From Guillardia theta CCMP2712 (Eukaryota; Protista; Cryptophyta), in assembly GCF_000315625.1 (NCBI RefSeq), contig NW_005434560.1:102049-166048 (forward strand): 64,000 bases of DNA. Reading direction: 5' to 3'. This document shows, piece by piece, positions 11,118 through 60,527 of the stretch (positions are counted from its first letter, which is position 1; each line of letters begins with the position of its first letter). The position numbers were made by a program, and so were the translations under genes. The notes under the pieces are model-generated. The model did no database searches. It worked only from the letters and a program-made list of their open reading frames with translations, and was not told where the DNA came from.

Positions 11118-12098
11118 ATGACAAAGCCCTGCGAGCAATGCTTTGTCTGCAAGCGCTGCAAGCAGCTCAAGGCGCCGAAGCCTGGCTGCACCACCTGCCG
11201 CAAGTGCCCGGACTGCTGGGACACCAGGGTGAGGTGCTGGAGGGCGGTGAGCGACCCTTTCGTGGTTCCGAAGGGGTTGGCGGGCCACAAATGCCGCTGG
11301 CAGTGCATCGACTTCGACCTGGCGGGCTGCACCGAGTGCGGGGCGATCCACCGCTGCGACGCGGCGACCTGCCCGGTGTTCGAGGAGGAGGACAGCCACG
11401 TCTGCACCATCACGGGGAACTGCGTGCGGCTGAAGCGCTTCACCCACGACGAGTTTATGGACAACGTGGTCATCTCCGACCTCCCAGGGCCAGTGGAGCG
11501 GGAGATGCGGCTGCTGACGGATGAGCGGGAGGTCAGGGAGAACGTGGAGTGGCTCCTTTCCTCCCGCACGGCGCGGCAGAGCTTCGAGCAGGAGCGCGGC
11601 CGCATGGAGCAGAAGCACCGGCACCTCCTTTGGAAGCTGCTGCGGGAGATCAAGCTCCGGGGCGGCATACCGAACCTCTGCCAGGTCATGACGCAGATCC
11701 TGCACGCCACCAACAAGATCCGGGTGTGCAACACCAGCTTCCAGCCCGAGCTGAGGCAGGAGGTCGTCGGGCGCTGCGTGTACAGCATCGTGCGCTTCCT
11801 GAACCTCATGGGCCAGCGCTTCCGCTCCGCGCTCGGCGCGCTCAAGACCTCCACCCTCGTGGTCGGCACGCTGTACCTGATGCGGATGGGTATCTCCATG
11901 CACAACATCACCCTGCTGCCCCGCATGCCGCAGCTCCAGCTCATCCTCCCGATGGAGACCCACCTCAAGACCTTCTTCCAGATCAAGTGCAAGAGCATCA
12001 CCGAGGTCGAGAACCTCATCAAGATGTGCCTGCGCGGCCTGAGCCCCGCCGAGCTGGAGAGGATGGGCTTTACCATGGCAGAGGAGGTCACGATGTGA
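11118..12098 (+). CDS. Zinc-binding protein resembling the herpesvirus UL92/ORF31 late transcription factor family
   Basis: GCTECGAIHRCDAATCPVFEEEDSHVCTITG follows the UL92 pattern CxxCxxxHxC-x4/5-C-x9-VCxxTG. There is an extra N-terminal Cys cluster and a helical C-terminus. Confidence 0.6.
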   Translation: MTKPCEQCFVCKRCKQLKAPKPGCTTCRKCPDCWDTRVRCWRAVSDPFVVPKGLAGHKCRWQCIDFDLAGCTECGAIHRCDAATCPVFEEEDSHVCTITGNCVRLKRFTHDEFMDNVVISDLPGPVEREMRLLTDEREVRENVEWLLSSRTARQSFEQERGRMEQKHRHLLWKLLREIKLRGGIPNLCQVMTQILHATNKIRVCNTSFQPELRQEVVGRCVYSIVRFLNLMGQRFRSALGALKTSTLVVGTLYLMRMGISMHNITLLPRMPQLQLILPMETHLKTFFQIKCKSITEVENLIKMCLRGLSPAELERMGFTMAEEVTM

Positions 12099-24883: not shown

Positions 24884-26113
24884 CTAAACGCTGAACACCG
24901 CCGACTGGGCGATCAGGATGATGGCCAGTGCTGCCTTGGAAGTCGTACTCAGGAGGTTGTAGACGTACTCCCGCAGGTAACCGTCGATCTTTGTCTCCTC
25001 CTTCTGGATGAAGTGGAAGTAGATCTGCGCCGCGGCGAAGGTGAAGAAAAGAACCAACTCGATAATATAGATAAGAATTGGATAGACTGTGTAGCTGCTG
25101 AGGTTTTTGTCATTGAGACAGTCGAAGATCCTCATGTAGTCTCCAAAGAGGTTGTTCCCGATGTAGAACCATATCATCACAAATAAGTACATCCCAAATA
25201 AGAAAGCCAATCCTTTCATGTAGTTCGTTATCTTCTTGAGGTCCTTTGGCTCCACACCCGGCATGCCCCATGCAGCATTCATCTCGACCCCGATCGTCCT
25301 GTAAGCCGGACTGACCACCGACCCCTTCTGCCACGGCATGTTGAAACGCACGGGGACGATGACCGCGCTCGTGCGGTCGGAGCCCCACGCTCCCCTGAAA
25401 GCCATCTCACTCCTCTCCATGTTACTATATTCTCCAGTATCGACCTTCTCATCCGGAACGCTTTGTGCCTCCCTGAAGAGACACTCCTTCGATGCCACGT
25501 AGTCCGCCGCCTCGACGACGTACCCCAGGAAGCACATCACCGACTGCGCCAGGGACACAAAGATCAGCACCCACACGTCCGTCGTCCCCGTGTAGAGGCA
25601 GATCACGACGATCATCGAGGAGGACGAGAGCGCGTACTCGATCCAGCGGTCGTAGCGGGGCAGGCCCTTCCGAAGCGGGTCAATGAATGCACCCATCATT
25701 ATCGCCCTGTCGAGGTGTGCCAAGATTGTGACGACGACGAAGAAGAGGATAAAGAAGCTGACGGGGAAGAAGGATGTCTCCACCACCCTGGGTTGGTACA
25801 TCCAGGGGTTGGAAGAGCCCCACCGCACCTCGTAAGGAGGCGGAGTATTGACACCACAGCGGTCTAAATCAGGATGGCTCCCCGCCTGCGGCACCGTGAT
25901 CAGGCTGGCATTCCACAGGAGCGGCACCGTGCGCGTCGTCGGGGGTGTGCGGATTCGATTCATCGCCAGAAGGACGATGAAAGCGATTAGAAGGAGTCCA
26001 TGAATGAACGCATTGAACAGATTGCGGTTTCTGGAGTACCGCAACCTATCCTCTTCTTTTACCCCTGCGCCCTCGAAAGCAAAGATCATCTTCAAATCAT
26101 TCCCCAACCCCAT
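24884..26113 (-). CDS. Heliorhodopsin with a long insertion between TM4 and TM5
   Basis: TM1 His (NAFIH), TM2 His (ILAH), RWIEYALSSSSMIVVI (TM3 counterion motif), FLGYVVE (TM4), and EYVYNLLSTTSKAALA (TM7 SxxxK retinal lysine). Confidence 0.9.
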   Translation of the reverse strand: MGLGNDLKMIFAFEGAGVKEEDRLRYSRNRNLFNAFIHGLLLIAFIVLLAMNRIRTPPTTRTVPLLWNASLITVPQAGSHPDLDRCGVNTPPPYEVRWGSSNPWMYQPRVVETSFFPVSFFILFFVVVTILAHLDRAIMMGAFIDPLRKGLPRYDRWIEYALSSSSMIVVICLYTGTTDVWVLIFVSLAQSVMCFLGYVVEAADYVASKECLFREAQSVPDEKVDTGEYSNMERSEMAFRGAWGSDRTSAVIVPVRFNMPWQKGSVVSPAYRTIGVEMNAAWGMPGVEPKDLKKITNYMKGLAFLFGMYLFVMIWFYIGNNLFGDYMRIFDCLNDKNLSSYTVYPILIYIIELVLFFTFAAAQIYFHFIQKEETKIDGYLREYVYNLLSTTSKAALAIILIAQSAVFSV

Positions 26114-30752: not shown

Positions 30753-31250
30753 ATGCTCGCCTTCGACATCGAGACCATGGGCCTCAGCATGCACCACCAC
30801 GAAATCACTGTCGCCGCCGTCTACGACCCAACCAAGGGCATCCGCCACTGCTACAACTTCTACAGGCACCGCCACGACCGCACCAGGTGGCAGCGCGAGG
30901 TGGACGATTTCCTACGCACCCTCGACGAGGCCCGCACCCTCTGCACCTTCAACGGCATCCGTTTCGACATCCCCTTCATCCAGACACAGTTCAAGGTCGA
31001 CCCGGAGAGGGTGGGCCGCTGGGTGCTCAAGACCGTCGACCTCTTCCACCGCTGGAAGCTCCTCCGCGACCACACCTTCTCCCTCGACAAGCTCCTCATC
31101 GCCAACGGCCTCCCCGTCAAGACGTCCAAGGGCTGCTTCGCCATCGATATGGCCAGGCAGCAGCGCTGGGACGAGCTCGAGGACTACTGCATGAACGACA
31201 CCGTCCTCACCCACCTCGTCTCGTCCAAGGAGAGGCTCGTCATACCCTGA
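30753..31250 (+). CDS. DEDDy/DnaQ-like 3'-5' exonuclease (RNase H fold)
   Basis: ExoI AFDIET, ExoII TFNGIRFDIPFI, ExoIII YCMND. Confidence 0.9.
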   Translation: MLAFDIETMGLSMHHHEITVAAVYDPTKGIRHCYNFYRHRHDRTRWQREVDDFLRTLDEARTLCTFNGIRFDIPFIQTQFKVDPERVGRWVLKTVDLFHRWKLLRDHTFSLDKLLIANGLPVKTSKGCFAIDMARQQRWDELEDYCMNDTVLTHLVSSKERLVIP

Positions 31251-45278: not shown

Positions 45279-48200
45279 TTACTGGGGTGCATCGATCAGG
45301 TTGGATGACTTTAGGATGAGCTCGTAGGATTCCTTGTTGTAATCACTCTGTCTTGTGTGGTTCAGAAGCTTATTGACGGTGGGTGTAAAGGGCCATGGTG
45401 CATTGATCCCATCAGGCTTCCATTTGATCATCAGTTCGTTCCATGCCTTCTTCTTCTCCTGCAATCCCTTGCGGATCTGCTTCCGCATGTCCCGCTCCCG
45501 GAAGCTCCCATACATGTCGATGAGGTCGTAGTTGCCATCCGTGGGTGGCTTCCGGCCGATTTCGTAATTGTCTGGGTTGTAGGTGATGGCGGTGTAGGCC
45601 GCGTTGATGAGGTTGGAGCTGTAGAAATTCTGGAATTGCACGACAATGTCCTCTAAACTATTCCCAGGGAGATTCTCGATGCAGTACCACGGGAAGTACA
45701 TATCGGCGGATAGGTGGTCAAAGAAAGACACAGGGGTCCACAGCTCGGTGTGCCTCAGCCGGTGGCTCACGATGGTGTACCAAGTGTCGGAGGTCCTTTG
45801 CATATAGTAGCTTGATTTTTTGTTTTTGGCCTTTGCAGTTTCGTTTGTTTTCAGCGATTTGATGACATAGGCCATGTTCAGCGTGAACTTGTGCAGGGCG
45901 CGGATGTATCGGAACACCCAGCGGTGCAGCACTCCGTCCCAGTTGGACTCTTCGATACTGACCTCTGGGGTGTTGTCGCCGAATAGCTCTGTCTTGTGAT
46001 TGTTCTTCATATTCTCGATGGACTTCTTCAAGATTTCAGCGAAGACCTTGCCGCTCACAACGATGGTTGCACTCCCTGAACTGTATTTGACAACCTGCAT
46101 GTTCCGCGCGACCCTGCTCCGCGTGACGTATAGCTGATTGTATGCTAACTTGGGTAGGACTTGCTTCAAGCGGTACTTCACGACGCTGTCGCGGTCGAGG
46201 TGGATGTGCAGGATACGGGTGAAGTCTTCCTTAGGGAGGGTATGAAGAATTCCTATGATGTGTACCTTCCAGGGTGTGGCGCTGCTGACCGACGTGGTGG
46301 AGGAGGGGTGGCTGTGGGCGGGGCTTGGAGATCGGGGGCGCTTGTTGGAAGCTTCAGGATCTTCATATAGAAGCCCTCCGCGATTGTGACCCCCTCTGGT
46401 ATGGGGTGGGTTCCATACTTTTTCGTGGTCAATCTCTTGATCGCGGGACGGCTTGGGAGAGTTAGAAGCTTCCTCCTTTCTCACAAATCCGGGGAGTACA
46501 CCCGGAGAGTGCTTTCTGACGTTGGAAGCTTTAGAATCTTCATCTGTGTTCTTCCCTCCAATCCCTCTTTGATCGTGGGCCTTTCTGACACCGGGGTCGT
46601 TATCCATCTGCGTATGGTGTCTGTTATCGGGTTCCATGTCAGGCTCTTCCGGTTCCATGTCAGGCTCACTTTCGTTGTCTTTCTCGCTTGCATTGTCTTC
46701 CATCCCATCTCCATCTGCACCAAGTTTGGCGTGCATGGGAGTGGGAGAGGAAGGGGAATATGTGGGAGAAGGAGGGGAATATGTGGGAGAAGGAGGGGAA
46801 TATGTGGGAGAAGGAGGGGAATATGTGGGAGAAGGAGGGGAATATGTGGGAGAGTGAGGAGATAAATCAATAGACTGAATCCTTCCCTTCTGATACGCCA
46901 GTTCCATGTTGTACAGAGCATTCGTGTATAAACTGAGCATTGCCCTCAAATTAATAAATGAATCGACATCATTCATTTTCAGTTGACTGGCATTGATCTC
47001 TATCGTTGACATCTGTAAGAGAATGCCATTTGTTATATCCTTCAGGTATGCGTATTTTTTAAGTTCAGAATCAATATCCTTGTAAATTCGCCATGTTTCC
47101 TTCAACTGAGAAACGAGTGAATTCAGAATATTGTTGGGTGGTACGATTGCTGTCCCTAATGCTGTCTTGTATGTAAATTGGTAATCCATGGTAAATATTT
47201 CATTGAGTTTATCGATAATCTTCTTCTTGGTATCTTCCCAATGATTTTTCATCACAGTTTCCATATGATCTGTTGAGACTTGTTGCTTTTTAGCAACATC
47301 TTTGATGATGCCAAGTGAATTTTCCCGTAACGTTCCGTCCAGCCTTGGGTACTTAGTGATTCCTGACATCGGTGTCAGCTTGTCGATCACTTCCGTCAAT
47401 GGGGCGTTGGTGAGGGTGACGTAGAAGTCATCCCAGGAGCGCATGGACCATGTCAGCATGGGCTTGTCGTTCTCCGCCGCGCCAGGCAGCCTGGCTATCT
47501 CCAGGTCGGCGGCTTTGTCGTCCTCACCGGCCAGGATGACCTGGATCATGTGCTCGAAGTTCGTCACGATGTTCATGAGGTTGGTGGTATCCATGTTTGT
47601 CGTTTGTACGGTCATGCGCGTGAAGGGGTTCAGGAATGTCTGGTTGTGGAGGATGAAGGAAAGTATCGCCTCCTGCTGTAGTGTTATCCTTAGTTTCTTG
47701 CGGTAGTCGTAGTAGATACCCTTGATGATCTCGACGAATGAGTTGATGACGTAGGGCATGAGGCGGACGATTTTGAGCGGATCGTCTTCCTTGATCAGCC
47801 TTCTTGTATTGATGTACAGGCTGGTTGTCAGCTTCTTCACCTTGGGGTTGAGGTGCAGGGAACATTCCTTGAATTGTTTCGCGCTGTGCTGGTAGTTGAC
47901 GCTCTGGATGACGAGGATCTTAAGCACGCGCTGCATGACGACGGATATGACCATCTTGCAGCCCATGATGTACTTCACGATGGCTTGCTTGGCTGTTTCG
48001 TTCTGTTTACCCACCGCGAAATTGTACAGTTCAATCAGCGTGCTTTTGGGACTTGTGTCCCTGTACCGTGTGGTGTTGGATACTTCCGTGATTTTCGACA
48101 TAAACTTTTTCCGGTTTTCAATGACGCGATCGATGCCATGTTTCTCTATATTATGCAGGTTAGTGGTGGACTGGTCCAGGGATATCTTGAGTTGAAGTAA

Positions 48201-51200
48201 CAACCCATTCAGTCTGGACACAGCACTCCTGTATCTCATAATTTCACTGTTGTACCTCCGTCTTGGCTGCAAGTCCTTGTTTTTTCTGTTCCTTCTTCTT
48301 TTTGCGTTGTTAGTGACTGCAACAGGCATGCCAATAAACATGGCGGAGACACCCTTTTGATCGTCACACTCGTCTTCGCTGTCGCTGTCGCTCTCCCCCA
48401 TCTCCGCGGCGTAGCCCCACGCATCGCCGAGGAGGATACCGTTCGGGTCTTCAATATCCCTGTGGATATCGCGGGAGAAGATGCATTCGAGCCTTGGTTT
48501 TTTGCTGGACCGGCTGGAATCCTGGTCCGTCCTTTTGTTCTTGTCCGACATCAATGGGATTGTGCGTTGAAAGGGATTTTTCTGCTGTATTGGGTTGTGT
48601 CTATGCTGTATAATTTTCTCTATGAGTTTCGTTTCCTTGTTGAGCTCCTGCTTGAGCTTTTCCCTGTCGTTCTCATTGATCTCATTTGAGCTCAATGCGC
48701 TCCAATCTTTCTTGTTCAATGCACTAACAACCTTCGTCATCAATTTTAATTTTTCCAGTACATTTCTGTGATTTTTTTGGAGTTCCTGCTTGGAAGATTG
48801 GTATGATTTTATGTTTTCCTTGATTATGTTTTCGTTGATAACCCTGTTATCCATCTGGGTGAATGTTTCAATGTTCCTGTCGATCCATTTTCCGAATTGG
48901 TACAGAACCATCAACTTCGTAAATTCATATATGGTCTGTATGGTGGATTTTATGTCGTCTATGTACCCAGGTGCCCTTACAAGTACGTTCATTATGTCGT
49001 TGTTCTGTTCTGCATTAACATTGAATTCGTGTACACTGAGCCATGTTTTGACAGTGGGTAGCTCGAGGTGGAGGTAGTCCTTTAGCTGTTCCATCTGCTT
49101 GAACGTGAAGGAATCCGGCTCGACCGTTGTCTTAATGTCATTCATCATGTATTCGTTGGGTTCCAATCGGTATTCACCATAGCCTCTCTGATATTCCAAA
49201 GGAACTTCTATCGATGATTGACCCAGCAGAGCATCGATCATACCCAGCATGTAGCGTTGGAAGACTTTCTTGGAGTTGGCGTCCTGATCGTTGTTCTTGA
49301 TGCTGGGCATGAGGATGACATTGAGCGCCTTGATGGTGTTTATCCTGGCTGCTAGAATGAGGGGCAATGCCTCTTTGAAGAGTTTAACAGCCTCGCTGTT
49401 GCGTATGATCATACCGTAGTCATCGGTAGGTTTTGCATTGTTAACCTTGGTATTCCAGACATCTTTGTGTGCGTCTAGTTGCATCTGTTGTTTCATGATT
49501 CTTTTCACGTTGATTGCGTTGAGCAGGTTCGAACCGAAGCGCTTCATGTGCCCTGGCTGTACATCCGCCATGTAAGGCTTCATGTCATACAGCTCCTGTT
49601 TGATCTCCCTTATGTTGACTCGATATGGATCGATGTCGAGGGATGATGAAGTCATCGTGGCCTTCATCCACATGTTATAGACCTTGTGGGTGTATCTCTT
49701 GCAAAATCGTAGCCTTTCCACGTTGCCCGCGTAGGCTCCGTGGACTTGTTTGAGGATCTTCTTCACCCGGCGGTCGTTCCTGGATTGGATGTCAAGTTTG
49801 ATATCTTTGATGTCTGTAGTGTCGGCGTACTTTTGCTTTCCCTTTATCATCGCGGCGAACATGTATTGTGGTGTTATGTTGAAATCTTCTTTGTTGTTTT
49901 TCTGGAATTCCCCTTGATTCCAGGGTTCTTTGCTCTTCATGCGTTGTATATCTCTCTGTATCTCTTTGTCTGCATTCGTGTCCAGATCTTTGATGTATTG
50001 GTTGTATGTGGATTGGTGCATGTTCAGGGCTTGTTTGAGCTCGGCTTCATCCTTTGGAATAGCGCCGATAGGATTTCCGCGGACGATGTCCTCGAGTATG
50101 CTGTAGTCTATCTTGTCATTGAATCCTTCTACAAAGACATGGTCTATCTTCGCCCATTGGAGCATATACCGGATAGACGTTATGACCTTGATGGTTGCAA
50201 TATGTTCTGAGTTGTCTTCTATGAATTGTTTGAAATCGTCGCTTGCATCCATGCTCTTGTCTATCTCATCCATTTCATCTAAGGTGTTTTTCAATACATC
50301 TATCTCATGTCTGTTTTTTTCATAATCATGCCTGAGATACATCCGCTTATAATAAATGTTGTGAGAGTTTATCTGCTCTTCCGTTAAGATTTCACGTGCA
50401 ATATGATGTAGATCACCCTGTGGTTTTTCCCATATAGGGAGTTTAAAATGTTTCATGACACTTTCCTTTCGTTCTTCGTCCTTGTACTCGGATTTCATCA
50501 ATTTGATGAATTCGTCTCGACCATTCTTGTTGGCAAATAAGATAAGTGATACGTATCTCATGACATTGTATGTATCCTTTAGTTCATTACGTGCCGTATT
50601 GATGTTTTTTTGGTATTCATCTCGGTCGGTCACCTTCCCTTTTTCTAGATTATTGACATGGCGTAGTAGGTATGACATTCTTCTGATGACAAAATTTAGT
50701 TTTCGTGTCATACTCAGAAATTCACTGTAATATATGTTTTTGAATTTTCCTCCAAGAGGTTTGGTATAACGACGTTTCAGAGTATCACATTTTTCCATGA
50801 GTTTGTCGATTTCATGGTTGATTTGAAAGCTTTTGAGTGATGTCATCGCATCCTTGATATAATTCGGTAATATCTGGTAATCCTTGAGCCTCTTGATGAA
50901 TATCGGTGTGTTATCCTTCTTTTTCTTCTCGGCCACGTCCTTCCAATTGCCGGCCGCCCCCTCCCCCGGCGCACCGATCTCGGGGCTGAATTCATGCCCA
51001 CTCTCTGACATCTCCTCGTGATCGCTGCCTGGCTCATCGTCGCTGCTGTAGTCATACCTGGGTGTGACATGCATGGAGCCATCACCGAGGTCATCGTTGT
51101 AGAACTCCCTCTCGTCGTCGTAGTATGCCTCGTCCCACAGCCCGTCGTCCTGGATCCCCGCGGCGCGGAGGACGCTGGGGGGGAAGCGGAGGACGCCGTC

Positions 51201-51425
51201 GTCGCGGTCTGCGAGCTCGCTCCACTCGGCGAGCTGCTCGAGGGACTCGTGGAGGAGGTCCATGGTCTCCTGCTCGATCTCTTCTTTGGACGGTGTCGGC
51301 GTTTCATGGGAATGGCAGTCGTTGTTGGGAATAGAAGCCGAGTGGAACACCACCTGGACTCCATCGTAATCGATGGCTTCTTCGGGGTGAGATCCAGACG
51401 GCAGGTGGTTTACTGCGCCGTGCAT
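45279..51425 (-). CDS. Giant (2048 aa) helical/acidic protein containing RNA Pol II CTD-like heptads
   Basis: Uninterrupted ORF with an upstream CGTATAAAA (51451-51459, minus) and (YSPPSPT)4-YSPSSPT. No RNA polymerase motifs. Confidence 0.85.
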   Translation of the reverse strand: MHGAVNHLPSGSHPEEAIDYDGVQVVFHSASIPNNDCHSHETPTPSKEEIEQETMDLLHESLEQLAEWSELADRDDGVLRFPPSVLRAAGIQDDGLWDEAYYDDEREFYNDDLGDGSMHVTPRYDYSSDDEPGSDHEEMSESGHEFSPEIGAPGEGAAGNWKDVAEKKKKDNTPIFIKRLKDYQILPNYIKDAMTSLKSFQINHEIDKLMEKCDTLKRRYTKPLGGKFKNIYYSEFLSMTRKLNFVIRRMSYLLRHVNNLEKGKVTDRDEYQKNINTARNELKDTYNVMRYVSLILFANKNGRDEFIKLMKSEYKDEERKESVMKHFKLPIWEKPQGDLHHIAREILTEEQINSHNIYYKRMYLRHDYEKNRHEIDVLKNTLDEMDEIDKSMDASDDFKQFIEDNSEHIATIKVITSIRYMLQWAKIDHVFVEGFNDKIDYSILEDIVRGNPIGAIPKDEAELKQALNMHQSTYNQYIKDLDTNADKEIQRDIQRMKSKEPWNQGEFQKNNKEDFNITPQYMFAAMIKGKQKYADTTDIKDIKLDIQSRNDRRVKKILKQVHGAYAGNVERLRFCKRYTHKVYNMWMKATMTSSSLDIDPYRVNIREIKQELYDMKPYMADVQPGHMKRFGSNLLNAINVKRIMKQQMQLDAHKDVWNTKVNNAKPTDDYGMIIRNSEAVKLFKEALPLILAARINTIKALNVILMPSIKNNDQDANSKKVFQRYMLGMIDALLGQSSIEVPLEYQRGYGEYRLEPNEYMMNDIKTTVEPDSFTFKQMEQLKDYLHLELPTVKTWLSVHEFNVNAEQNNDIMNVLVRAPGYIDDIKSTIQTIYEFTKLMVLYQFGKWIDRNIETFTQMDNRVINENIIKENIKSYQSSKQELQKNHRNVLEKLKLMTKVVSALNKKDWSALSSNEINENDREKLKQELNKETKLIEKIIQHRHNPIQQKNPFQRTIPLMSDKNKRTDQDSSRSSKKPRLECIFSRDIHRDIEDPNGILLGDAWGYAAEMGESDSDSEDECDDQKGVSAMFIGMPVAVTNNAKRRRNRKNKDLQPRRRYNSEIMRYRSAVSRLNGLLLQLKISLDQSTTNLHNIEKHGIDRVIENRKKFMSKITEVSNTTRYRDTSPKSTLIELYNFAVGKQNETAKQAIVKYIMGCKMVISVVMQRVLKILVIQSVNYQHSAKQFKECSLHLNPKVKKLTTSLYINTRRLIKEDDPLKIVRLMPYVINSFVEIIKGIYYDYRKKLRITLQQEAILSFILHNQTFLNPFTRMTVQTTNMDTTNLMNIVTNFEHMIQVILAGEDDKAADLEIARLPGAAENDKPMLTWSMRSWDDFYVTLTNAPLTEVIDKLTPMSGITKYPRLDGTLRENSLGIIKDVAKKQQVSTDHMETVMKNHWEDTKKKIIDKLNEIFTMDYQFTYKTALGTAIVPPNNILNSLVSQLKETWRIYKDIDSELKKYAYLKDITNGILLQMSTIEINASQLKMNDVDSFINLRAMLSLYTNALYNMELAYQKGRIQSIDLSPHSPTYSPPSPTYSPPSPTYSPPSPTYSPPSPTYSPSSPTPMHAKLGADGDGMEDNASEKDNESEPDMEPEEPDMEPDNRHHTQMDNDPGVRKAHDQRGIGGKNTDEDSKASNVRKHSPGVLPGFVRKEEASNSPKPSRDQEIDHEKVWNPPHTRGGHNRGGLLYEDPEASNKRPRSPSPAHSHPSSTTSVSSATPWKVHIIGILHTLPKEDFTRILHIHLDRDSVVKYRLKQVLPKLAYNQLYVTRSRVARNMQVVKYSSGSATIVVSGKVFAEILKKSIENMKNNHKTELFGDNTPEVSIEESNWDGVLHRWVFRYIRALHKFTLNMAYVIKSLKTNETAKAKNKKSSYYMQRTSDTWYTIVSHRLRHTELWTPVSFFDHLSADMYFPWYCIENLPGNSLEDIVVQFQNFYSSNLINAAYTAITYNPDNYEIGRKPPTDGNYDLIDMYGSFRERDMRKQIRKGLQEKKKAWNELMIKWKPDGINAPWPFTPTVNKLLNHTRQSDYNKESYELILKSSNLIDAPQ
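46741..46860 (-). repeat. 21-bp tandem repeat encoding CTD-like heptads
   Basis: ggggaatatgtgggagaagga units, translating to SPHSPT(YSPPSPT)4YSPSSPT. Confidence 0.95.
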
Positions 51426-53039: not shown

Positions 53040-53214
53040 GCCACGCGTGCCCTGTGCTTTTTGGTGTAGCTTTAAATAAAACATCGAGGGGGGAATAAAA
53101 AAACACAAAAAAAAACTTCCATGACGCCGAAATCCATCTCTCCGCGCTTTCGAACGTATTAAACCCGGCGATGGCGCCGCCCTCCTCGGACTGGTTACTG
53201 ACGCTTTCCCGCAG

Positions 53215-54783
53215 ATTGGGACGACCAAGGGCACCGGCGGGGATGTGCTGATCCTGGAGGAGGCGGCATACTGCGACGAAGGTTTCTTCTACGAAACCGT
53301 CGCACCCATCCTTTCCATCGGCAACACGTCGCTGCTGTGTATATCTACCTTGACATCGGAGATCAATTTCTACACCAGGCTGATAAAGATGCGGGACCCG
53401 GAGACGGGCAGGCCACTCTTCGCCGTCAGGTGCATCGAGCTCGCCTGCCAGGCATGCAAGGAAGACGGCAAGGCGCACGAGTGTGTGCACCTCCTGCATC
53501 TCGTCCCGCAGTGGCAGAGTGGCGAGAGGCACAGGAGGCTGAAGGTGATGATGCAGGATCGCCCGGATCTGATACAATCCGAGCTGGCGGGGCTGGCGTT
53601 CGACTCCCTGCAGCAGGCCTTCCGCCCCAAAGACGTGGAGATCATGTTCGAGCAGGTCGCCCCTCCCCTCTCCAACGGACAGACCGTCTTCGTCGTCGTG
53701 GACCCGGCGGCGGGAGGGCCGCAGAGCGACTACGCCGTCGTGAGCATCGTGAGGAGCAAGGGGCTTGTGACGGTAACTCTCTGTGTGTTTGCACCCTTCT
53801 TCCCCTCTAGCTGTATTGGTAGACCTCCCGCAGCTCCCGCTCGAAGTCGACGCTGAGGCGGAGCTCGTCGCGGAGGAAGCGGGGCACGACGCGGGAGCCG
53901 AGCTCGCGGAAGAGCACGGGGGCCTTGTGGGGGCAGAGGCCCTTGAGCGTGACCCCGGTGGGTTCGTGGAGGAAGGAGCGGCAGACCGCCTCTTTTAGCC
54001 CCATGTCCACGTTGAGCAAGAGGAAGAAGACGCACCTCGCGCTGTGCGGCGACCGCCTCGCGATCTCGTAGAGCCGGACCGCCTCCGTGTCCCGCAGCTC
54101 CGCGGCGATCCTCTCCACCGCCCCCTTGCAGAACTCGAGCGTGGTCCTCATGTCGTCTGTGTAGAGGATGTGGAAGAGGACGTCCCTGTTTCTGAGCTCT
54201 GACATCTACCCTTCGCAGATCGTCGGGATGGACGTGCTGTCGGGATGCAAAGGTACTTCTTTTTTTTTTAATCTTTCCTGCATTGACTCCCTTGGAAGAG
54301 CCCGACAAGCAGTTCGACCTGCTCGGGGAGCACATGGAGAGGCTGCGGGGGATGAACACCGCGCTCTACGCCTCGGAGTTCGTCGTCATGGTGGAGCGGA
54401 ACCTGGGCTTCGAGGCGGAGTACCACCAGCGGCACTTCAACGGCATGCCCCATGTCCGCTTCCGCGTCGACCACAAGGCCCAGAGGTACGGCGTGCTGAC
54501 GACACTCGAGATAAAGCACGCCATGTGCACCATGCTCAACACCATGCTGCGGGAGCGGAGGGTGCACCTCTGGGGCGAGTTCGTCAGCCGCGACCCCAGG
54601 GGCATGAAGCGCCGGCTCCGCGAGCAGCTCGAGATCTACTCCTACCAGTTCAAGGGCGCCGCCAGCGTCTTCAACAAGGACCAGCTCGCGCTCAGCGGGA
54701 AGGTCGGCGGGATGAAGGACGACGTCTGCATCGCCCTGCAGCTCGCCTGCTACTACAGCTCCAACCCGGAGTTCTACGTGTAG
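53215..54783 (+). CDS. Herpes-type terminase large (ATPase/nuclease) subunit, 3' exons: 53215-53772, 54219-54252, 54299-54783 (358 aa spliced); Walker-A exon absent from window
   Basis: KGTGGDVLILEEAAY (Walker B), CIST (motif III), CxxC..C.H..P.W, and RNase-H nuclease motifs VVVDPAAGG, VERN and SGKVGGMKDD. Removing two GT-AG introns restores one frame (1077 nt). Confidence 0.88.
53773..54218 (+). other. Spliceosomal intron (446 nt, phase 0) in the terminase, containing a nested antisense gene
   Basis: Donor ACG|GTAACT, branch CTCTGAC (54197-54203), acceptor CCTTCGCAG. Splicing joins GLVT to IVGMD. Confidence 0.8.
53807..54205 (-). CDS. Hypothetical protein (132 aa) nested antisense inside the terminase intron
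   Basis: ATG-to-TAG ORF filling 399 of 446 intron bases, with genome-typical GC3 codon usage and globular composition. Confidence 0.7.
   Translation of the reverse strand: MSELRNRDVLFHILYTDDMRTTLEFCKGAVERIAAELRDTEAVRLYEIARRSPHSARCVFFLLLNVDMGLKEAVCRSFLHEPTGVTLKGLCPHKAPVLFRELGSRVVPRFLRDELRLSVDFERELREVYQYS
54253..54298 (+). other. Spliceosomal intron (46 nt, phase 1) in the terminase
   Basis: Donor AAG|GTACTT, T-rich body, branch CATTGAC, acceptor AAG. Splicing joins GCK-E-PDKQF. Confidence 0.8.
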
Positions 54784-57811: not shown

Positions 57812-57867
57812 CGGAGTGCGGTGTATTTAAACGCGGCGAGAAAGGAGGTGGCATCGTGGTTTTGATT

Positions 57868-59355
57868 ATGGGACGCACCAAACAAGATCAACGGAGGGAG
57901 ACCGGTCAAAGGGCTCCAGTCGCGAGGCTCTCAACTCAGAGAGCCAGAGAAGATGCACCCTTTACGGCGGGTGTAAGACAGCCAGGCAGCACTGCTACCA
58001 AGCAGCGCGGTGTTGTCGCATCGGGCGTGAATGTGCCCAATTATCTGCAGTTGATCTGTGCCCTTTCTGCTTTTCAAAGTGAGGAAGATCTAAAACAAAT
58101 GCAGTACTTTGTCGACCTTTCTAAGGAAGATGAAGCTTGGTACAACAAGCTTACCTCAGAAAACAGGCAAATATTTGATGATCTCTGGGTTAGGCTCGAT
58201 TCCGTGTCTGTACCTCAGACAGAACAGCAAACGACTGAAGGTGCAGCTTCTATCTTGCAGAGCATGCGCAATGACGAGAATCAAGACACGCAACAGGAGT
58301 TCCAGGAATCCGATCCAACCAATGTCGTGAGCGGCACCCTGCAACCGGACGTCACGGTGCTCCTCGAATCCCAACCCGAGAGCAATGAAATGGATTCGCA
58401 GCAAGAGCCTGTGCCGGCCCCTCCTGCCGTCGATGGAAATGGTGATCCAATCGATGAAACGGGCACTGGATCGCAGGTTCCTGGGACGTCGCCGACCGAT
58501 GAGCCGACATCCGTTTCCTCTACCATCGATGAGAACAATCAAGAAATCGATGGAACGGGTACTGAATCGCAGGTTCCTGGGACGTCGCCGACCGTTGAGC
58601 CGACATCCGTTCCTGTCGTCGATATGAACGAGAACAGAGATGAAGGCTCTTCCAACGCTACCGGTTCAAGCAAACTGCTAGAGAAGGCATTTCAGCGAGA
58701 GAGCAGCTCGGATGAATCCGATGATCCCGATGCACCTGTGATCACCAACTCTCGCAAGAACGTCGGTGGCAAGCAACTCCCACAGATGCAACCACAGATG
58801 TCGAACCCACAGCCGCAACCAGCAACGTTTGTGAACCCAGCTTTGGAAGAGTATCACTTCGTTATTCCCGAGCAACCCGACAATGGTCCGGAACAAACAG
58901 GCGTTCCATCTACTGCCACTGATTCGTCTGTTTCTAAAAAACCAATCAGAACCAAGCAGACTGCCAAGAAGAGCACTGGCGGCAAAGCACCACGCAAAGG
59001 TCGCGCCAAAAAGGATTCTAGGAGGTCCACCGTACACGACGGCGGAGTCAAAAAGCCCCACCGCTTCCGCCCCGGCACCGTGGCCCTCCGCGAGATCCGC
59101 AGGTACCAGAAGAGTACGGAGCTCCTTATCAGGAAGATCCCTTTCCAGCGGCTCGTCAGGGAGGTAACGCAAGACCTGGGATTCCGGGGCATCCGATATA
59201 AAGCAGATGCCATCATGGCGTTGCAGGAGGCTTCGGAGGCCTACCTGGTTGGACTCTTTGAAGACACCAACCTCTGTGCCATCCATGCCAAGCGTGTCAC
59301 GATCATGCCCAAGGACATCCAGCTGGCCCGGAGGATCCGTGGGGAGCGTACTTAG
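57868..59355 (+). CDS. H3: Histone H3 fusion (495 aa): N-terminal H3-tail copy, long acidic linker, complete H3 (58945-59352)
   Basis: The C-terminal [17 protein letters not shown]...[28 protein letters not shown]...[20 protein letters not shown] is unmistakably H3. ATG at 57868 follows TGTATTTAAA (57822). Confidence 0.95.
58450..58614. repeat. Imperfect ~69-bp repeat x2 (96-bp period) in the H3 linker
   Basis: [22 protein letters not shown] versus [22 protein letters not shown]. Confidence 0.9.
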
Positions 59356-59379
59356 ATCGTACTTAGATCGTACTTAGAT
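59347..59379. repeat. 11-bp tandem repeat x3 spanning the H3 stop codon
   Basis: cgtacttagat occurs three times. Confidence 0.95.
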
Positions 59380-59456
59380 TATCCCACCCCACGGGCATAC
59401 CGTCCCCTTTCCGTTCGTAGTGATTAAACGTCGCTTAATATTACTTTACTGTTTCT

Positions 59457-60527
59457 CTACGCTACGAAGGTCACGATGGAGGTGTCGAGGAGGCCGTGGG
59501 TGTGCTGGAAGGCCATGATCCTGCCGTGGACGAGGCGGGTGATGATGTCCTCTGGCCTGACCTCGCAGGTGATGCCCTCGACGCTCCTGCCCCGCCCCGC
59601 CATGAAGGCCATGCGGACGGTGCCGGCGCGGACGCTGCGCTCCTCGGTCTCGAAGGTGAGCTCGCTGCAGACGGTCTCTTGCTCTGCCGCTTGGTGGGTG
59701 CCTTCCTGTGCCCTCTGCAAGGGAACCACGCGGGAGCGGGCGACCTGGGTGATGCTATCCCCGTCGTCGGCGTAGCAGAGGCCGAAGGAGATGCTGGCGG
59801 GGCGCAGGATGGTGAGGGCGCGGCTGATCTTCCTGCACTGGTTTCTCTGGACCGCGAACCTCTGCGGCGGGTGGATCTCCGGGTGCTCGAAGACGACGTT
59901 GAGGAAGAGGTGGATGCCGGTGGAGCACTGCGTCCAGTACGGCAACCCCGCCTCGAAGGGGTGCCGGTTGAGCGTTTCGAGGGCCTTGAGCACGCTGGAG
60001 GGGGGCATGTGGAGGATGGCTTGGAGCTGGAGGTTGGGGTAGACAAAATCCCACTGCCGCAGCAGGGCGATGTCGGTCATGAGCTCACTGACGGGGACGA
60101 GGTCGATGTCGACGTCGATGTCCTCGAAGTCTTCCTCGGCCTCCTCCCTTCGCATCTCCTTGCGCATGCGCTCGACGTGGCCCGCGACGGCCTGGCGGCA
60201 GGAGGAGGGGAGGCATTCCGCGCTCAGGGGGCTGCCGTGCCCGCTCCTGCACATGGGGCAGCGCATGCCGTGGAGCATGAAGTAAACCGCGAGGGCGACG
60301 GGATGGAATGCCTTGCCGCAGCACGGAAGCTTCACCACGCAGCACTTTCCCCCGTGGACCTCTAGTGTGTGCGACTGGGGTATGCCCTCCACCTCCGCGC
60401 TCCCCAATGGCTCCATGAGGATGGGGCAGTCGTCCGGCGGGCTCCCCAGGCAGTCTTCCCCCCCGAGCATGACGTCGATGCAGTGCTCCCCACACTCGCT
60501 CACCCATGTCTGCAGCACCCAAGTCAT
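59457..60527 (-). CDS. RING-finger-like protein (putative E3 ubiquitin ligase)
   Basis: CPILMEPL...LPCCGKAFHPVAL...RCPMCR, a RING with some ligands substituted. Confidence 0.7.
   Translation of the reverse strand: MTWVLQTWVSECGEHCIDVMLGGEDCLGSPPDDCPILMEPLGSAEVEGIPQSHTLEVHGGKCCVVKLPCCGKAFHPVALAVYFMLHGMRCPMCRSGHGSPLSAECLPSSCRQAVAGHVERMRKEMRREEAEEDFEDIDVDIDLVPVSELMTDIALLRQWDFVYPNLQLQAILHMPPSSVLKALETLNRHPFEAGLPYWTQCSTGIHLFLNVVFEHPEIHPPQRFAVQRNQCRKISRALTILRPASISFGLCYADDGDSITQVARSRVVPLQRAQEGTHQAAEQETVCSELTFETEERSVRAGTVRMAFMAGRGRSVEGITCEVRPEDIITRLVHGRIMAFQHTHGLLDTSIVTFVA

Follow-up and report, generated by a model that had tools for sequence, protein, structure and literature searches.

A 495-aa open reading frame in the window, the 64,000-nucleotide stretch of DNA analysed here, encodes a viral histone H3 with two H3 tails. 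One tail belongs to a complete H3 at the C-terminus. The other is a tail copy at the very N-terminus, followed by a novel segment and a long acidic linker. Lone viral H3s are already known; the two-tailed architecture is real and unusual. We propose tentatively, and with less than even confidence, that the tethered extra tail with its fixed changes T6D, K9R, S10E, G13Q and K14R resists H3K9 silencing of viral chromatin. The coding region is composed as follows:

57868..59355, + strand: ORF of 1488 nt (495 aa) with outer H3-like tail, novel segment, acidic linker and complete H3
57868..57984, + strand: outer (N-terminal) H3 tail copy, H3 positions 1-38, 19/38 identities
57985..58131, + strand: conserved segment after the tail, protein residues 40-88, aligned with the homologue P0122
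58258..58944, + strand: acidic low-complexity linker, residues 131-359, 41 D+E versus 10 K+R in 230 residues counted
58945..59058, + strand: inner H3 tail, from residue 360 on, without a free N-terminus, 26/38 canonical
59059..59355, + strand: H3 alpha-N helix and histone fold, intact (PF00125)

The outer segment codes for Met and 38 residues that align with canonical H3 1-38 without a gap. As canonical reference served the form present in 235 of the 236 tail matches among the matches of the whole-protein search. None of 100,000 shuffles of the outer tail reached 19 identities. When the first 60 residues were compared to PDB with phmmer, all 60 matches listed (the best 60 of 118) were H3 chains (best E 2e-6). 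In addition, an H3 tail profile matches the outer tail with an E value of 2.8e-9. By these alignments, the outer segment is a true H3-tail copy, as the initial annotation had stated. The substitutions it listed (T6D, K9R, S10E, K14R, K18A, K23Q, K27E, S28D, K36R, K37Q) are all right. Furthermore, this strain carries A1G at the free end, i.e. in the residue after Met. Only one of eight lysines is kept compared to 18 of the 30 other residues (Fisher p=0.04), and the net charge is +5 versus +12 in canonical H3. The first six residues alone are, at sequence level, no evidence of histone mimicry: none of several viral-contig ORFs that begin with an H3-like hexapeptide (L088, L090, L093, L118 and others) is related.

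The inner tail is well kept. It retains K4, K9, S10, K14, K18, K23, K36 and K37 (7/8 lysines) and carries R8K and K27R. At positions 1-18, 16/18 residues of the inner and 9/18 of the outer tail are canonical. Both tails share only 12/38 residues and are each nearer to canonical H3 (26/38 and 19/38, respectively) than to each other. This fits an old duplication of the canonical tail followed by separate divergence, from which we infer the origin of the outer tail. A Met directly before the inner tail is absent. As the inner tail lies within the chain, the only free N-terminus of the protein would be that of the outer tail.

The fold matches Pfam PF00125 with an E value of 1.4e-42 and 145 bits (cut-off 26.4), and 82 of 98 columns are identical to canonical H3. 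It has one additional residue in loop 1, has lost K79, carries F84Y and reads D-A-I-M at positions 87-90, while Q68 and T107 are kept. A Pfam search of 65 window ORFs revealed no H4 fold. Because the H3 fold is host-like and H4 was not found in the window, the viral H3 likely pairs with host H4. Two other classifications were ruled out. A histone doublet or multiplet does not apply, as there is one Pfam histone stretch and the N-terminal part scores nothing with the H3 core profile. Centromeric H3s (CENP-A/Cse4/CID) have a long divergent N-terminal extension, an additional residue in loop 1 and a replaced F84. They are recognized by the loss of Q68, F84 and T107, a longer loop 1 and about 50-60% identity to H3. 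The H3 described here shares with them the long extension, the additional loop 1 residue and the replaced F84. In contrast to them, it keeps Q68, T107, 84% H3 identity in the fold and a canonical inner tail.

Two relatives of the outer tail were found. The first, P0122, is a 101-aa protein encoded on a 670-nt contig. It matches the N-terminal part with an E value of 1.3e-24 and 54/88 identical residues (61%), and is known as these 101 aa only, so that a join to an H3 fold is not part of the contig evidence. It has Ala1, Gln4, Lys27, His28 and Lys36. A search with residues 1-135 yielded one protein in the range of 30-271 aa, P0122, and none in the range of 272-867 aa. In a profile search of 1.84 billion representatives, P0122 was the only full-length relative among the best 150 of 577 matches; the other listed matches comprised 147 ordinary H3 tails and two repeat-driven false matches. 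The second relative comes from run X6, in which a contig of 340 nt (depth 4.1) covers 57874-58213. Its 11 differences all fall into one 56-nt stretch at 57931-57986 (H3 positions 21-39), a clustering observed in none of 200,000 simulations. They result in S21A, Q23K, R24Q, D28N, V35Q, R36K and G39N, and one synonymous change keeps Glu27. No DNA difference is present at positions 2-20. Single low-depth contigs can err. Nevertheless, these changes are unlike sequencing errors, since three of them (A21, K36 and N39) agree with P0122 and three restore canonical residues. Elsewhere, X6 is near-identical to the window, so the independent lineages number only two.

Conservation along the tail is uneven:

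57871..57918, + strand: better conserved block, H3 positions 1-16, 12/16 identical to P0122, with T6D, K9R, S10E, G13Q and K14R
57919..57963, + strand: fast-changing block, H3 positions 17-31 (sites of K18, K23, K27 and S28), 4/15 identical to P0122

The flanks of the fast block are identical to P0122 at 32/42 positions (p=0.001, post hoc). Position 4 of the better conserved block differs, with Lys in this strain and Gln in P0122. Across the three versions, 21 of the 37 covered positions are invariant. Fourteen of them are canonical and seven are not: T6D, K9R, S10E, G13Q, K14R, G33A and K37Q occur in 3/3 versions. Two or more of these seven were found in none of the 147 other H3-tail matches listed in the profile search, and D6, R9, E10 and R14 are absent from 11/11 single viral H3s of IMG/VR. 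As to modifiable sites, K9, S10 and K14 are lacking in all three outer tails, whereas K4 is present in two, K27 in one and K36 in two.

This comparison splits the code proposed in the initial annotation, according to which only K4 was kept, K9 and K27 were lost and positions 10 and 28 were acidic. K9R and S10E, together with T6D, G13Q and K14R, are found in all three versions. By contrast, Lys4 is present in two, the loss of K27 in two (P0122 has Lys27, X6 keeps Glu27) and an acidic residue 28 in one (His28 in P0122, Asn28 in X6). Retention of K4 alone is a trait of this strain, as X6 has Lys23 and Lys36 and P0122 has Gln4, Lys27 and Lys36, and the loss of lysines, nominally significant in this strain, is not significant in the relatives (3/8, p=0.43; 2/8, p=0.23). 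The outcome named beforehand as speaking against such a code is seen in part, with variation at positions 4, 27 and 28 and none at 9 and 10. Judged from the aligned residues, K4, K27, S28 and K36 are outside the conserved signal. The proposed code is refuted for K4, K27 and S28; its K9 half holds up, on thin sampling, for K9, S10 and K14 along with T6, which leaves the initial interpretation partly supported. Residues shared by the versions may also reflect plain inheritance.

Further searches widened the view on viral H3s. The whole-protein search returned H3-containing proteins only, with a lone tail-like segment in none of the 120 matches listed. IMG/VR scans with the N-terminal part, the terminase piece and DNA patterns, a tblastn search of 163 IMG/VR pattern loci and two JGI metagenome scans yielded no relative. 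One candidate, L187, was rejected as a chance match. A second tail is present in none of 23 IMG/VR H3 loci. Some of these viral-contig H3s have peculiarities of their own. In L013:2879-4342, the H3 fold is preceded by about 380 residues that are unrelated and contain no H3-tail copy. At L008:3992-4375, an H3 with a shortened tail has Met at position 9, which recalls a dominant K9M allele. By alignment, L006 carries K23M and L010 K14M.

The source of the DNA is probably a mirusvirus, most likely of the Styxvirales. This assignment is based on a heliorhodopsin, a UL92-family gene, the H3, terminase-like pieces and near-identical DNA in a freshwater metagenome. The following neighbouring genes were recognized:

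11118-12098, + strand: UL92-family gene (Pfam)
24884-26113, - strand: heliorhodopsin (PF18761, E 6.5e-17)
30753-31250, + strand: RNase H-like 3'-5' exonuclease
53125-54783: two terminase-like pieces separated by an antisense 132-aa ORF (53807-54205); Walker-B-like and nuclease-like motifs read by eye
59457-60527, - strand: RING-like gene, below threshold

The motifs at 53125-54783 are those that we take to mark terminase pieces. The match to a PHROG terminase is weak (E 0.3), the single-sequence model is poor (pLDDT 49), and the ATPase N-half of the terminase was not located. No capsid protein was detected among the large window ORFs with Pfam or PHROG, a comparison that included no mirusvirus profile. 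A 2048-aa protein without Pfam match (45279-51425, - strand) contains about five tandem heptads like those of the RNA polymerase II CTD repeat and is, by its sequence, a possible CTD mimic. A gene-carrying intron in the nuclease region of the terminase has been described for Styxvirales and Okeanovirales (PMC12768974), and the layout at 53125-54783 resembles this split terminase. Styxvirales are also described as freshwater-prevalent and intron-rich (PMC12768974). Heliorhodopsin and H3 are listed as core mirusvirus genes (PMC10132985, PMC12768974), and the window holds both of these accessory genes (PF18761 and PF00125).

How could the extra tail act? The intact H3 would pair with host H4 and be loaded onto chromatin. 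The duplicated outer tail, the only free N-terminus of the protein, would ride on the acidic tether. Its fixed changes would block H3K9/K14 marking on the outer tail, Asp6 and Glu10 might act like phosphorylated T6 and S10, and the acidic tether might loosen packing. Viral chromatin would thereby be kept out of H3K9 heterochromatin. Several published data are consistent with such a role. [quoted passage not shown] In Neurospora, K9R, S10E, G13M and K14R reduce DNA methylation beside wild-type H3, whereas changes at K4, K18, K23, K27, S28 and K36 leave it unreduced (PMC3248561). Among the positions tabulated in that study, the viral tails do not vary at 8/11 sensitive and 1/7 insensitive sites (p=0.05, post hoc), a contrast confounded with position, as the sites form one contiguous block. 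T6ph and S10ph suppress LSD1 (PMC13142947), and S10ph releases HP1 (PMC4103482). The K9 methyltransferase DIM-5 needs R8, for which R8A and not R8K was assayed (PMC3248561); the inner tail lacks both R8 (R8K) and K27 (K27R). A lone bracovirus H4 with an extended tail enters host nucleosomes (PMC9145170), and nuclear replication has been predicted for Styxvirales (PMC12768974).

The main weakness of the silencing-resistant tail is its location. In the fungi, the effects were measured on the tail next to the fold. In the viral protein, this tail has K9, S10 and K14, and the altered one lies 360 residues from it. The earlier statement that this histone can be K4-marked and not silenced leaves the inner tail, with its K9, S10 and K14, out of account. 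Moreover, deleting the tail could equally avoid K9 marking. A more far-reaching version, speculative and on the whole unlikely, is that a nucleus-replicating mirusvirus lineage hard-wired an outer tail that is phospho-like at T6/S10 and dead at K9/K14, breaks the host K14ub-K9me3 loop on viral chromatin and changes fast at 17-31 under host pressure.

Nearly as likely as the silencing-resistant tail, though itself doubtful, is a degenerate duplicate. In this case, a tail relic in a novel N-terminal domain would be kept for a role unrelated to marks, e.g. nuclear import, DNA or chaperone contact or spacing, and the apparent code would be a by-product of lysines drifting to Arg or Gln. The variation of K4, K23, K27, S28 and K36 among the three versions agrees with this. 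So does the conserved run: with 54/88 residues identical, a stretch of eight identities in a row is no more than chance predicts (P=0.49). Conservation does not fall off behind the tail either, as the adjoining segment equals it in this respect (20/26 at residues 32-57). GC3 rises from 0.46-0.55 in the N-terminal extension (57868-58944) to 0.79 in the histone core, and neighbouring genes reach 0.88-0.91; this composition suggests that the extension is of more recent or of foreign origin or that its codon usage is less constrained. In addition, the linker contains a direct repeat and what may be a third tail fragment, which imply that the region grows by duplication:

58424..58611, + strand: two direct-repeat copies of 92 nt, 84% identical, 96-nt spacing, in frame
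58750..58776, + strand: candidate third tail fragment, strongly decayed and weakly supported, residues 295-303

The third fragment scores 3 bits with the tail profile, with E values of 0.03 in a four-sequence search and 34 in a whole-window search. On the other hand, a mere relic would hardly keep its register, exact length, Met position and 14 canonical residues in all three versions. The uneven variation also argues against it, both the 4/15 versus 32/42 identities and the confinement of 11/11 X6 differences to 56 nt. As for the novel domain itself, residues 40 to ~130 have no match in Pfam, PDB or Atlas. They are probably helical from about residue 59 according to a single-sequence model of low confidence (pLDDT 44). 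A decayed second histone fold behind the outer tail was rejected, as neither the H3 core profile nor hhalign scores there. Pieces of the linker are present in X6 and X7 with 1-4 differences each. At the other end of the gene, an 11-12-nt unit repeated about three times spans the H3 stop codon (59355-59400).

Clearly less probable is a decoy. The outer tail would bind and occupy a host protein that modifies or reads the 6-16 region, either as a substrate that is not turned over or by mimicking a product. It could do so in trans, while tethered or once cleaved off. Conceivable targets are enzymes that methylate K9, acetylate K14 (such as Gcn5) or dephosphorylate S10. Lys-to-Arg exchanges retain the charge and block turnover, and T11, G12, A15 and P16 are kept, whereas G13 is replaced. 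A preference of isolated Gcn5 for S10-phosphorylated peptides has been reported and is disputed in the same review (PMC4103482). S10E abolishes the activity of DIM-5 and S10ph inhibits it (PMC3248561), which speaks against binding of a K9 writer. The amino-acid changes of X6 at positions 21-39 would fit a host-contact surface, but their excess (seven changed residues, one synonymous codon) is not significant (pN/pS 0.24/0.07, p=0.26).

There is little chance that the outer tail is absent from the mature histone due to a later start, splicing or proteolysis. Translation from ATG 57868 is supported by a promoter motif, an insertion in a related strain and the homologue:

57823..57830, + strand: TATA-like promoter motif GTATTTAA, 45 nt 5' of the start codon
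window 9419, 10044, 12777, 15187, 32583, 42519, 43077, 51482 and 57823: copies of GTATTTAA, mostly 8-86 nt before a gene

The nine copies of GTATTTAA in the window compare to 0.8 expected, and an ORF of at least 143 aa follows 7/9 of them. This recurring sequence is a probable viral promoter motif, and ATG 57868 is the first ATG downstream of it. The related strain has 11 extra bases between the upstream stop codon and ATG 57868, and P0122 has a Met at the matching place. A later start is also at odds with the missing Met before the inner tail. Splicing would agree with a donor-like GTAAGA at 57973 and with the intron-rich Styxvirales (PMC12768974). However, the GT of this donor is replaced in the X6 contig and the frame is open across all 495 codons, including the linker with its in-frame repeat. 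Consequently, an intron linking outer tail and fold is unlikely and was rejected. One RNA run contained five matching reads, none of them with at least 99% likeness, which speaks neither for nor against expression. Separation of the tail would be compatible with the end of P0122 after 101 residues and with the peptidases encoded by mirusviruses (PMC10132985).

The least probable reading is the initial one of a tail tuned for K4 methylation alone with K27 and S28 also disabled: its lysine bias is true of this strain, K4 is present in 11/11 single viral H3s examined and D6 and E10 might protect K4me against LSD1 (PMC13142947), but K4Q, K27, H28 and K36 in P0122, K23, N28 and K36 in X6 and the Gly for Ala at position 1 in this strain contradict it.

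How does the two-tailed H3 compare with known systems? A histone was found in 54% of the mirusvirus genomes of the 2023 set (Gaia et al., 2023, PMC10132985). The core H3 of Mirusviricota (PMC10132985; OG0000007, PMC12768974) is likewise a lone H3 beside heliorhodopsin and a terminase-like gene. One supplement row gives a 324-nt gene for it (PMC12768974), whereas the gene described here has 1488 nt, a host-like fold (82/98) and two tails. Lone viral H3s can have N-terminal extensions of 35 to ~170 residues, the long ones of which were called unrelated to known proteins (PMC9145170). Examples are DSLPV1 (+53 aa), SRX310217.15 (+68 aa) and two phycodnavirus MAGs (about +170 aa) (Talbert et al., 2022, PMC9145170). 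These single H3s of large DNA viruses resemble the present one in their host-like fold, in helix 2 with its hybrid chaperone site, in the extension that precedes a fairly well-kept tail and in the presumed assembly with host H4. They differ in that the extension here comprises 359 aa and opens with a second H3 tail (PMC9145170). The bracovirus protein CvBV-H4 is also a lone viral histone with extra N-terminal sequence, which enters nucleosomes and acts via its tail. In contrast, it is an H4 with a 38-aa lysine-rich extension, and here an H3 carries a lysine-poor tail copy on an acidic tether (PMC9145170). The engineered K9R, S10E and K14R alleles of Neurospora and fission yeast contain the same substitutions and weaken heterochromatin beside wild-type H3. 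They are single changes in the fold-proximal tail, whereas the virus combines them in a distant extra tail and keeps the proximal K9, S10 and K14 (PMC3248561, PMC13079825). No two-tailed viral H3 was encountered in the databases and literature searched; the supplements of PMC12768974 and PMC9145170 and subscription papers may hold some.

Lone H3 genes are a core yet unexplained feature of mirusviruses. A code read from a single strain can collapse with one homologue, as that for K4, K27 and S28 did. The fixed changes of the extra tail at K9, S10 and K14 are those that geneticists use against heterochromatin, which makes an anti-silencing role testable. If the more far-reaching version above is true, this H3 would be a viral counterpart, evolved in nature, of the dominant K9R/S10E/K14R alleles, and its two tails would have different tasks.
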